Position numbers and translations under genes: made by a program. Source: Escherichia coli (lineage in GTDB: Bacteria; Pseudomonadota; Gammaproteobacteria; Enterobacterales; Enterobacteriaceae). Taken from it: a stretch of 64,000 nt of DNA. The DNA lies in the NCBI RefSeq assembly GCF_003334355.1, contig NZ_QOWP01000016.1; one strand, 5' to 3'. The notes below the pieces were generated by a model, which worked only from the letters and a program-made list of their open reading frames with translations, did no database searches and was not told the DNA's origin. Positions 18,614-21,740 of this stretch are shown in pieces; positions within the stretch are counted from its first letter, which is position 1, and every line of letters begins with the position of its first letter.

Positions 18614-19872
18614 GATAAAAACTCTCTTTGGGCTCGTGAAAAAAAGGCGTCATCACCGAAGTTGCCAGATTTAAGGGCGAGTGAGACAGGCTTATCCAGT
18701 GCGTTTACCCACGGCACGCCGGGGGAAATGGTTGGGCCAATATGAAACCCTTTTATTCCCAGGCTCTGTGTGACTACGCCGGAGGTCTCACCGCCTGCGA
18801 CAATAAAGCGTGTCACGCCTTCCGCTGCTAACCGCGCCGCTAGTTGAGAAAACAGTGTTTCTACTGCCTGACTGGCTTTTTGTGCACCGTATTGCTGTTG
18901 AATTGCTGCCAATGCGTCAGTGCTGGCGGTGGCAAAAACCAGTGGAGCAAGTACACTTTCCTGGCCCAGAACCCACTCTGCCAGTTCGTGTGCATAAGCG
19001 GCCAGAGTTTCAATTGAGAGGCAGCGTGCCACATCAACTTCACGGGCTGGTGCAATTTGACGGTAATGTGCTACCTGGCGGTTGGTCATTTGAGAGCATG
19101 AACCGGAGAGCACTACGCCGCGCCCAGCGAGCGGACGCCCTGCTTTGCGAGCCTGGTTACCGTTTTCTTGCGCCCACTGCCGGGCCAGGCCAATCGCCAG
19201 ACCAGAACCGCCCGTTACCAGTGGGGCATCGCGCAAGGCTTCTCCCTGAATTTCCAGATGGTGTTCGGTCAGCGCATCAAGCACCGCGTAGCGGTAGCCC
19301 TCTTGCTGTAAGCGAGCCAGCTCTTGACGAACGGCATCCACACCTTGTTCGAAAACATGTGCCGAAACGACGCCGCAGCGCCCTGTGGATTGCGCTTCAA
19401 CCAGACGGGGAAGATAGCTGTCGGTCATGGGATTTACCGGGTGATGGCGCATCCCGGATTCGGCCAGCAGTTGATTCATTACGAACAAATACCCCTGATA
19501 AACCGTACGTCCGTTGACCGGCAGGGCCGGAGAGAAGACCGTAAACGGCGTGTCGAGAGCATCCATTAAGGCATCGGTAACCGGGCCAATATTACCTTTC
19601 GCCGTACTGTCGAAAGTAGAGCAGTATTTGAAATAGATCTGTTTGCAACCTTGCTGTTGCAACCAGCTCAGAGCCGCCAGCGATTGCTGTGTGGCTTCAA
19701 CCACTGGACAGGAGCGCGTTTTCAGGCTGATCACCAGTGCGTCGATTGCTTCCGGCATTTTACCTGTTGGAACACCGTTAATTTGTACCGTTGGTAGACC
19801 GTTTTCCACCAGAAAACTGGCGATATCCGTCGCGCCGGTAAAATCATCGGCGATAACGCCAATCTTGATCAT
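18610..19872 (-). CDS. otnK: 3-oxo-tetronate kinase (420 aa as read from first ATG)
   Basis: ORF 420 aa starting MIKIGVIADDFTGATD; start overlaps ygbJ stop (ATGA); exact start not verified. Confidence 0.85.
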   Translation of the reverse strand: MIKIGVIADDFTGATDIASFLVENGLPTVQINGVPTGKMPEAIDALVISLKTRSCPVVEATQQSLAALSWLQQQGCKQIYFKYCSTFDSTAKGNIGPVTDALMDALDTPFTVFSPALPVNGRTVYQGYLFVMNQLLAESGMRHHPVNPMTDSYLPRLVEAQSTGRCGVVSAHVFEQGVDAVRQELARLQQEGYRYAVLDALTEHHLEIQGEALRDAPLVTGGSGLAIGLARQWAQENGNQARKAGRPLAGRGVVLSGSCSQMTNRQVAHYRQIAPAREVDVARCLSIETLAAYAHELAEWVLGQESVLAPLVFATASTDALAAIQQQYGAQKASQAVETLFSQLAARLAAEGVTRFIVAGGETSGVVTQSLGIKGFHIGPTISPGVPWVNALDKPVSLALKSGNFGDDAFFSRAQREFLS

Positions 19873-20777
19873 GATTTCGCTCCCGGTAGAGTGATGCCAG
19901 AGAAAATCTTGATAACTGCGCTATCGTCTTCTTTCCCGTAACCCGCGTTACTGGCGCTGGTGAACATATTCAATGCTGTTGAGGCCAATGGCAGCGGGAA
20001 GTGCAGGGCTTTGGCTGTATCGGCAACCAGACCAAGATCCTTAACAAAAATATCGACGGCTGAATGCGGGGTGTAATCGCCATCCACCACATGACGCATC
20101 CGGTTTTCGAACATCCAGGAATTTCCGGCGGCATTGGTCACGACGTCATACATCACATCCAGCGGGATCCCCGCACGGGCTGCAAGTGCCATCGCTTCGG
20201 CTCCGGCAGCAATATGTACGCCCGCTAACAACTGGTGAATAATTTTTACGGTCGAACCTAGTCCCGGTTCTGCACCTATGCGATAAACTTTTCCGGCAAC
20301 GGCTTCCAGCACGGGTGCCAGTCGTTCAAAGGCAATATCGCTACCGGAGGCCATGACAGTCATTTCACCGTTAGCGGCTTTTACTGCACCACCAGAAACT
20401 GGCGCATCCAGCATTTCCAGATCGAATCCAGCCAGAGCGGTAGCAATTTCTTGCGCATCAGCACTAGCGATAGTGGAAGAAACCATTACTGCCGTACCGG
20501 GTTTCAGATGTTGTGCAACGCCTGTTTCACCAAACAGCACCTGTTTAACCTGGGCCGCATTGACCACCAGCACCAGCAGTGCGTCCAGTTTTTCGGCAAA
20601 CGTCGCGGCGTTATCAGAAACCCCGCAAGCACCTGCCTCTTTCAACGTAGCGCAGGCATTGCTGTTCAGGTCTGCGCCCCAGGTAGAAAGACCTGCGCGG
20701 ACACATGACAGTGCTGCTCCCATTCCCATTGACCCTAAGCCAACGATACCGACATGAAACTCAGATCCCGTTTTCAT
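19869..20777 (-). CDS. ltnD: L-threonate dehydrogenase, 3-hydroxyisobutyrate dehydrogenase family (302 aa)
   Basis: ORF 302 aa with NAD-binding GxGxxG N-terminus (GIVGLGSMG); ygbJ position. Confidence 0.9.
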   Translation of the reverse strand: MKTGSEFHVGIVGLGSMGMGAALSCVRAGLSTWGADLNSNACATLKEAGACGVSDNAATFAEKLDALLVLVVNAAQVKQVLFGETGVAQHLKPGTAVMVSSTIASADAQEIATALAGFDLEMLDAPVSGGAVKAANGEMTVMASGSDIAFERLAPVLEAVAGKVYRIGAEPGLGSTVKIIHQLLAGVHIAAGAEAMALAARAGIPLDVMYDVVTNAAGNSWMFENRMRHVVDGDYTPHSAVDIFVKDLGLVADTAKALHFPLPLASTALNMFTSASNAGYGKEDDSAVIKIFSGITLPGAKS

Positions 20778-20972
20778 CTGCTCTCCTTGTTAATTTAAGT
20801 GATATTTTGTTTGATATTGTGAATATAAGCGCTGGAAGATAACGATATGATGATCTGATTCACATAAATTAACATTGTGTGTTATTTTATGTGAACTAAG
20901 CGTTAGTTGCGCCGCGCACGTTTCGCAGGCAAATAGCGTAGAATGTCAGCAGGACAAAGGAAGGAGCAAAAG

Positions 20973-21740
20973 TTGATACCCGTAGAGCGTCGCCAAATCA
21001 TCCTTGAGATGGTAGCTGAAAAAGGCATTGTCAGTATTGCTGAACTAACGGACAGAATGAATGTGTCACATATGACCATTCGTCGGGATTTACAAAAACT
21101 GGAGCAGCAGGGAGCCGTTGTGCTGGTGTCCGGAGGCGTCCAGTCTCCGGGACGCGTGGCGCATGAACCTTCTCATCAGGTAAAAACTGCGCTGGCAATG
21201 ACGCAAAAAGCGGCTATTGGCAAGCTGGCGGCAAGTCTTGTTCAGCCGGGAAGTTGTATCTATCTGGATGCGGGAACGACCACGTTAGCGATAGCACAGC
21301 ATCTGATTCACATGGAGTCACTGACTGTGGTCACAAACGATTTCGTTATTGCGGACTACTTGCTCGACAACAGTAATTGCACAATTATTCACACTGGCGG
21401 TGCAGTGTGTCGGGAAAACCGTTCCTGTGTCGGGGAAGCCGCTGCGACCATGCTGCGCAGCCTGATGATTGATCAGGCTTTTATTTCTGCATCGTCATGG
21501 AGTGTGCGGGGGATTTCTACGCCAGCGGAAGATAAAGTCACGGTGAAACGGGCGATTGCCAGTGCCAGCCGCCAGCGAGTTTTGGTCTGTGATGCGACGA
21601 AATATGGTCAGGTGGCGACATGGCTGGCGTTACCATTAAGCGAGTTTGATCAGATTATTACAGACGACGGTTTGCCGGAGAGTGCCAGTCGCGCGCTGGT
21701 GAAGCAGGATCTCTCTTTGCTGGTAGCGAAAAATGAATAA
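20973..21740 (+). CDS. ygbI: DeoR-family transcriptional regulator (255 aa from TTG; 265 aa if ATG 20943 is used)
   Basis: HTH N-terminus plus sugar-binding-like C-terminus; AAGGAG at 20960-20965 is spaced for a TTG start at 20973; divergent from ygbJ. Confidence 0.8.
   Translation: MIPVERRQIILEMVAEKGIVSIAELTDRMNVSHMTIRRDLQKLEQQGAVVLVSGGVQSPGRVAHEPSHQVKTALAMTQKAAIGKLAASLVQPGSCIYLDAGTTTLAIAQHLIHMESLTVVTNDFVIADYLLDNSNCTIIHTGGAVCRENRSCVGEAAATMLRSLMIDQAFISASSWSVRGISTPAEDKVTVKRAIASASRQRVLVCDATKYGQVATWLALPLSEFDQIITDDGLPESASRALVKQDLSLLVAKNE

Follow-up and report, generated by a model that had tools for sequence, protein, structure and literature searches.

The locus studied here raises the question of what the short repeats between ltnD (ygbJ), the first gene of a tetronate operon, and ygbI, a divergent gene for a DeoR-family repressor, are for, and what their unit is. 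The sequence-only reading of this DNA had proposed them as candidate YgbI operators in the divergent control region. The window, that is, the whole 64,000-nt stretch of Escherichia coli DNA analysed (from contig NZ_QOWP01000016.1), comes from a strain other than K-12 and is reversed relative to MG1655; a window position equals 2882207 minus the NC_000913.3 coordinate, and the spacer contains no indels. A 351-bp query of this region was found in 4588 of 5426 complete genomes, the top match being 99.7% identical. The spacer between ltnD and ygbI (20778-20972) measured 195 bp with 38% G+C, in line with the AT-rich region of about 195 bp first described. The genes on its two sides are as follows.

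19869-20777, minus strand: ltnD (ygbJ), L-threonate dehydrogenase, ATG start at 20777, NCBIfam equivalog.
20973-21740, plus strand: ygbI, DeoR-family repressor, TTG start, 255 aa, NF040890 at 484 bits against a cutoff of 400.

The operon runs ltnD-otnK-otnC-otnI-ygbN, all on the minus strand. NCBIfam equivalogs and RefSeq annotation agree on the identities of ltnD and ygbI, and NCBIfam further identified 3-oxo-tetronate kinase, 3-oxo-tetronate 4-phosphate decarboxylase, 2-oxo-tetronate isomerase and a GntP-family transporter. YgbI has an N-terminal HTH_DeoR domain (PF08220) and a C-terminal DeoRC effector domain (PF00455), as do its orthologues. The divergent arrangement of ygbI and the tetronate operon is repeated in 14 species. 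The ygbI start site has been mapped 21 nt upstream of the TTG (PMC2760140), which places its promoter within the spacer.

20939-20944, plus strand: ygbI promoter -10 hexamer TAGAAT, with the start site mapped at 20951/20952 (PMC2760140).

A 265-aa, ATG-initiated version of ygbI (20943-21740) in the open reading frame list was rejected, because the mapped start site at 20951/2 falls within the extension and the orthologues start at TTG or GTG; the real start is the TTG at 20973 (PMC2760140). The block AAATAGCGTAGAAT at 20931-20944 is conserved in all close species, well past the -10 hexamer, and its Serratia counterpart reads AAAT..GACGTAAAAT. This conservation exceeds what a -10 hexamer needs, and the block could be an extended promoter element or the site of another factor.

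The 10-bp inverted repeat exists exactly where it was first placed: TTCACATAAA at 20859-20868 and TTTATGTGAA at 20886-20895 are perfect. It is longer than first described, with 16-nt arms at 20859-20874 and 20880-20895 that are complementary at 15 of 16 positions across a 5-nt gap. When the 195-bp spacer was shuffled with dinucleotides preserved, a perfect arm of at least 10 nt arose in 6 of 1000 shuffles and a 16-nt arm with one mismatch or none in 1 of 1000. The perfect 10-mer is not fixed within E. coli. B2-type strains carry TTCACAAAAA or TTCACAAAAG, and the variable positions 20865 and 20868 disrupt it in other E. coli.

The true unit proved to be smaller than the 10-bp half-site. A third copy of the 15-mer was present at 20788-20802, and alignment of the copies revealed a recurring pentamer, TGT(T/G)A (TMACA on the other strand), placed every 10 bp and pairing into a 15-bp box, TGTTA-N5-TGTGA. 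The third half-site of the sequence-only reading, TGTGAATAT, does occur, at 20818-20826 and not 1 bp earlier at 20817-20825 as given. It is no separate related site, being the last pentamer of a direct-repeat operator of four, which we call O1. The sites in the spacer are listed below.

20788-20822, plus strand: O1, four direct pentamers at 10-bp phase, i.e. two tandem 15-bp boxes (conservation and PWM).
20860-20894, no single strand: O2, palindromic pair of inverted boxes centred at 20877, enclosing the repeat 20859-68 / 20886-95.
20860-20874, minus strand: O2L box TCACATAAATTAACA, the half of O2 kept in 14/14 species, whose TCACA doubles as a CRP half-site.
20880-20894, plus strand: O2R box TGTTATTTTATGTGA, the clade-specific second half that completes the palindrome.

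O1 lies 11 nt upstream of the ltnD ATG and consists of TGTTA at 20788, aGTGA at 20798, TGTTt at 20808 and TGTGA at 20818; its two boxes score 22.4 and 13.9 bits with the PWM described below. It is the most widely conserved site of the spacer, and all but its last pentamer had been missed. O2 consists of TCACA at 20860 and TAACA at 20870, followed by TGTTA at 20880 and TGTGA at 20890, with zero mismatches to the four-pentamer pattern. Just two arrays of four phased pentamers (at most three mismatches) occur in the 64-kb window, both within this spacer. With no more than one mismatch allowed, we counted 4 two-pentamer boxes in the 195-bp spacer against 7 in the remaining 63.8 kb, and two of these seven fall inside ygbI. 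Among six other E. coli genomes ten spacer positions are variable and none of the ten lies in a pentamer (about 2 expected), a count that is consistent with constraint on the pentamers and non-significant alone.

For phylogenetic footprinting we used the ltnD-ygbI spacers of 14 Enterobacterales with YgbI identities from 96% to 60%, including E. albertii, Salmonella, Entomohabitans, Scandinavium, Serratia, a Citrobacter-like contig, Pectobacterium, Dickeya and Pantoea. An orphan ygbI of Yersinia pseudotuberculosis was added to these 14 ltnD-linked species. The orthologues were gathered via homologous proteins and then the contigs encoding them; a YgbI search of genome contigs gave 4 loci, including a contaminated MAG and an unrelated match of 35%. 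The MAG contig (RKCM01000024.1, 'MAG: Oscillospiraceae bacterium', our L006) encodes a YgbI 100% identical to that of E. coli; almost certainly, contaminating E. coli DNA was binned with a Firmicutes MAG here.

When the spacers of 10 species were aligned, the columns without variation fell on the pentamers (20788-92, 20799-800, 20808-11, 20818-22, 20860-64 and 20870-74), and variation was seen in the 5 nt separating successive pentamers and in the stretch from O1 to O2. Pentamer columns had 94% identity, against 70% for their spacers and 60% for the DNA separating the two operators (Mann-Whitney p = 4e-7; the classes were chosen post hoc). The sequence-only reading had tied its proposal to conservation of the repeats across orthologous spacers. 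All 14 ltnD-linked species have both O1 and O2L, 72-73 bp apart, and O1 stands 11-15 nt from the ltnD ATG, but the right arm of the repeat is limited to one clade: O2R occurred in the 7 species with a YgbI identity of 73% or more and in no others, and these 7 include Escherichia, Salmonella, Entomohabitans and Scandinavium. Over 42 boxes the consensus is TGTTA-wwTTw-TGTGA, with G2, T3 and G12 each in 42/42.

The post hoc choice of motif classes was mitigated by a held-out test, in which a PWM trained on 12 non-Escherichia species was scanned over 127,972 positions of the window. Its top three matches were 20860(-) with 23.6 bits, 20880(+) with 23.3 bits and 20788(+) with 22.4 bits, and the next match had 14.3 bits. 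O2R was no training class, yet it came within 0.5 bit of the PWM maximum. The segment VSHMT[IV]RRD[LV]QKLE, which includes the recognition helix, is invariant in 15/15 YgbI orthologues, and this fits an unchanged DNA specificity.

YgbI was until recently among the uncharacterised regulators of E. coli, and only one target is known for it. From an i-modulon study came the proposal that YgbI acts in this spacer to repress ygbJKLMN (PMC6892915). Gao et al. (2021, NAR) reported a single genomic YgbI site by ChIP-exo, at NC_000913.2 2859304-2859334 with a signal-to-noise ratio of 12.5; on deletion of ygbI, the log2 changes of ygbJ, K, L, M and N were 5.55, 5.15, 5.09, 4.62 and 3.95, a 16-47-fold derepression, and the mutant grew on L-tartrate (PMC8464067). 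Strains evolved on m-tartrate carried ygbI mutations and over-expressed both ygbI and ygbJKLMN (PMC6452873), and over-expression of ygbI in ygbI mutants is evidence for autoregulation. Two published findings count against an operator role of the repeats: YgbI was measured at just 2-6 copies per cell (values quoted in PMC7567609), and a YgbI box that others had predicted upstream of dgcZ had no regulatory effect (PMC13131220). Reg-Seq links YgbI to idnK, leuABCD and dicC by mass spectrometry, and its text gives no site sequences.

Together with these ChIP-exo and derepression data, the periodic motif, the phylogenetic footprint, the held-out PWM, the adjacent gene for a DeoR-type regulator and the resemblance to the deo operators argue that these repeats serve as the operators of YgbI, a repressor of the DeoR family; to this reading we assign a probability of roughly 80%. 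The proposal of the sequence-only reading is thus supported by footprinting and by published data, with its anatomy revised. The regulator-target pair is already published, and the switch is of a conventional kind, a local repressor with its operators; what is gained is refinement and no surprise. The box, its phasing, the sites O1, O2 and Oi (an intragenic candidate described below) and their conservation across species appear to be new. In the literature searched we found no YgbI motif; Gao et al. give only the 31-bp interval (PMC8464067), one site being too few for a MEME motif. An exact YgbI box makes the switch testable at the level of the pentamer, including inducers and the interplay of CRP and YgbI, and permits regulon prediction in other Enterobacterales. 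The operator model also explains why loss-of-function mutations in ygbI unlock growth on tartrate in evolution experiments.

The interval called by ChIP-exo and the operators can be compared directly after conversion of coordinates.

20896-20926 (approximate), no strand: YgbI ChIP-exo interval, converted, accurate to about 1-2 bp.

For this conversion we take the shift from NC_000913.2 to NC_000913.3 to be +1977, in agreement with a check on ynfL/ynfM. The interval begins 1-2 bp past the end of O2 without overlapping it, lies about 75 bp from O1 and is the least conserved part of the spacer; the lack of overlap counts against the operator reading. Intervals of 31 bp called by MACE can shift when the bound complex is large or looped, and we read this one as a displaced call on a large complex.

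The other protein with a documented site in the spacer is CRP. In MG1655 it binds taTGTGAatcagaTCACCata in in vitro Footprint-seq with a Kd of about 8.4 nM, which was reported as a new site (PMC12871828). This site and a putative promoter element of ltnD have the following coordinates.

20846-20866, no strand: CRP site, over which the Footprint-seq site was mapped, core GATGA-N6-TCACA at 20849-20864, centre 20856.5.
20822-20827, minus strand: putative ltnD (ygbJ) -10 hexamer TATATT, with the start site placed at about 20815.

The CRP site and the left arm of O2 have TCACA (20860-64) in common, and part of the conservation of these five positions may be due to CRP, because TGTGA/TCACA is a CRP half-site too. 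As read from the alignments, a left half-site nGTGA is retained in most species, and a TAYATT-like hexamer was seen by eye in 13/14 species. A start at about 20815 would place the CRP centre at -41.5, a class II position, conditional on that start site. On the minus strand no usable -35 was found for the putative ltnD promoter. The core has GGTGA in K-12 and GATGA in the window, where its two mismatches to TGTGA-N6-TCACA are at chance level. The difference is at 20850, which is A here and G in K-12 and five other E. coli; over 351 bp, this position is the sole difference between the window and the best match among the 5426 complete genomes. The A appears to be a private allele, and it could be either a real mutation that weakens the promoter or a sequencing error. 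An RpoD genomic-SELEX study also recovered the spacer and flagged H-NS, and predicted two promoters inside O2, TTCACA-18-TATTTT for ygbI and TTCACA-16-GTTAAT for ygbJ (PMC3946193).

These observations give rise to two readings in which YgbI is not the protein that shapes the repeat. The conserved TGTGA and TCACA could be sites of CRP or another global factor, with the repeat a by-product in an AT-rich spacer. That CRP binds here in vitro, that the TCACA of its site is the one at 20860-64 and that nGTGA is kept to its left in most species all speak for this. It is distinctly unlikely all the same, since the spacer has a single TGTGA-N6-TCACA arrangement and CRP would account neither for the invariant TAACA at 20870 and the TGTT elements in O1 nor for the 10-bp phasing. 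Besides, within O2 TCACA and TGTGA are oriented wrongly for CRP and separated by 25 bp, and in the strain of the window perfect boxes stand beside a CRP core with two mismatches. The repeat could instead consist of two fully overlapping, divergent sigma-70 promoters, TTCACA-18-TATTTT on the plus strand and TTCACA-16-GTTAAT on the minus strand, as predicted in the genomic-SELEX study; our promoter scan likewise found the plus-strand match, with an extended TG. We consider this unlikely as the explanation of the repeat, because the mapped ygbI start at 20951/2, with its -10 TAGAAT, is some 57 bp further right, GTTAAT does not have the A that is the key second base of a -10 hexamer, and O2R is missing in half of the species although ltnD must be transcribed there. 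Promoter elements would also leave O1, the intragenic copy and a further box found in distant species (O3, below) unexplained. The promoter pair is compatible with the operator reading, as YgbI on O2 would occlude both.

Two further readings concern the place of the operator and its very existence. The true operator might lie inside the ChIP-exo interval, which maps onto 20896-20926, for example as the palindrome AACTAA-GCG-TTAGTT at 20894-20908, which resembles a DeoR half-site and of which TGAACTAA recurs in ygbI. This we hold to be highly improbable: the interval is the least conserved stretch, and the palindrome is already broken in E. albertii, despite a YgbI identity of 96%, and absent in Salmonella, though the HTH is invariant across these species. 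The repeat might finally be a functionless chance palindrome, short repeats being common in AT-rich DNA and the spacer having 38% G+C. The shuffles (1/1000 matching), the conservation in 14 species with variable spacers and the top PWM ranks leave this reading next to no weight.

The palindrome AACTAA-GCG-TTAGTT was rejected as an operator, being unconserved outside E. coli and probably fortuitous; a part of it, TGAACTAACG, recurs at 21041-21050 inside ygbI. Elements acting in RNA were rejected as well. For the ltnD leader the minimum free energy was 0 and there was no Rfam match, the sole hit of the Rfam search being a sub-threshold plant miRNA with E = 0.5. A hairpin or terminator formed by the repeat in a transcript is contradicted by the position of O2 upstream of both start sites and by the region scan, which returned 0 terminator-like sites.

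Under the operator reading, YgbI would make its base contacts with the pentamer TGT(T/G)A, presumably with one subunit per pentamer, and two pentamers one helical turn apart would form a 15-bp box. O1 would cover the putative ltnD promoter from the edge of its -10 across the start site into the 5' leader (-7 to +28), and YgbI bound there would sterically block RNA polymerase. O2 would lie at about -45 to -79 of the same promoter, overlapping the upstream CRP half-site, and YgbI on O2 would compete with CRP. O2 probably cooperates with O1 via a short loop, since the centres are 72 bp apart, about 7 turns, and one oligomer could hold both at this spacing. The two operators together would silence ltnD-otnK-otnC-otnI-ygbN until YgbI is released by a metabolite of the pathway, the effectors of such repressors usually being phosphorylated intermediates.

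We compared this arrangement with known systems. The YgbI site of Gao et al. has the same regulator, spacer and target operon and the same logic of a local repressor with a single target, but theirs is a 31-bp interval adjoining the repeats and without a motif (PMC8464067). E. coli DeoR belongs to the same protein family, and its operators deoO1 and deoO2 begin with TGTTA and end with TAACA, pentamers in common with the YgbI box. The K-12 deo operators upstream of deoC are TGTTAGAATTCTAACA and TGTTAGAATACTAACA, 599 bp apart. DeoR, the founding member of the family, has several operators per locus, and their cooperation by DNA looping is documented (PMC8053113). The deo sites deoO1, deoO2 and deoOE are, however, single 16-bp palindromes, TGTTAGAA.TTCTAACA, lying 300-600 bp apart, whereas YgbI has arrays of pentamers spaced by one turn, all direct in O1 and two-plus-two inverted in O2, with O1 and O2 just 72 bp apart. 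The 16-bp DeoR palindrome had 0 matches with at most three mismatches in the window.

A predicted tandem-repeat site of the DeoR family has been mentioned elsewhere (PMC8579813). The YgbI arrays share with several sugar repressors the features of a local repressor of a sugar or sugar-acid operon, a divergent gene and several phased repeats bound by an oligomer, which for YgbI is presumed. Tandem or direct repeats are bound by the DeoR-family repressors GlpR and AgaR of E. coli and IolR of B. subtilis, and four adjacent 10-bp direct repeats have been reported for FruR of L. lactis. Compared with GlpR, AgaR, IolR and FruR, the repeat sequence of YgbI differs and O2 mixes orientations.

The position of O2 bears on the regulation of ygbI itself. 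Relative to the mapped start of ygbI, O2 spans -58 to -92, upstream of the promoter and not in a classical position for repression, which counts against its acting as a simple operator of ygbI. A different layout was observed in a more distant clade comprising Serratia, the Citrobacter-like contig, Pectobacterium, Dickeya, Pantoea, the Yersinia orphan and one genome at 67% YgbI identity (loci L013, L014, L016, L017, L020, L021 and L015). These carry a box, O3 (TCACA-N5-TATCA), on or just after the ygbI -10 (GTAAAAT), 25-62 nt upstream of the start codon. In the clade with at least 73% YgbI identity, O3 is absent, O2R is present, and six of the seven species have a candidate box within the regulator gene.

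21378-21394, minus strand: Oi, candidate intragenic box TGCACAATTATTCACAC (minus strand TGTGAATAATTGTGC), at +406 of ygbI, codons 136-140.

Oi matches the YgbI box as GCACA-N5-TCACA, is the 7th best PWM match in the window and is absent from the distant clade. All 17 nt of it are shared by 6 species without change, and no other unchanged run in ygbI exceeds 5 nt. It holds five consecutive invariant third codon positions, with 10% of third positions invariant gene-wide, and five consecutive invariant codons arose in 20 of 100,000 codon permutations. Judged from these comparisons, it looks like the autoregulatory site has been relocated by lineage.

Auxiliary looping operators within genes are familiar from lac O2, inside lacZ, and gal OI. 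Oi resembles these in lying about 500 bp away inside a coding sequence, and it would be kept there by synonymous-site constraint. It differs from them as a candidate site within the gene of the repressor itself, and by ChIP-exo no peak besides the one in the spacer was reported (PMC8464067). A joint reading, in which a single low-copy YgbI oligomer loops the eight phased pentamers of O1 and O2 and in which the Escherichia/Salmonella clade has in addition rewired its autoregulation, is offered tentatively, as we give it well under even odds. The O1-O2 loop, of about 7 turns, would enclose the CRP site and the ltnD promoter. In the rewiring, the ancestral O3 would have been lost and O2R and Oi gained, Oi being held by constraint on synonymous sites, and the ygbI promoter would be repressed from within an O2-Oi loop of about 500 bp.

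Two minor observations were made in the distant species. The mid-spacer regions of Pectobacterium and Dickeya (L016 and L021) have a common block, GACGTGAATTTATGATAATTATCG, with CGTGA and TGATA 10 bp apart, which may be a further degenerate box. The Yersinia pseudotuberculosis ygbI (L015) is an orphan without an adjacent ltnD operon, but it retains the opening box of O1, CTCTCCAATGTTAATTTTGGTGA, along with a remnant of the ltnD ribosome-binding region, and another box close to its own start (about 1363-1377 and 1446-1460 of that locus). This suggests that the operon was deleted and the regulator left behind.
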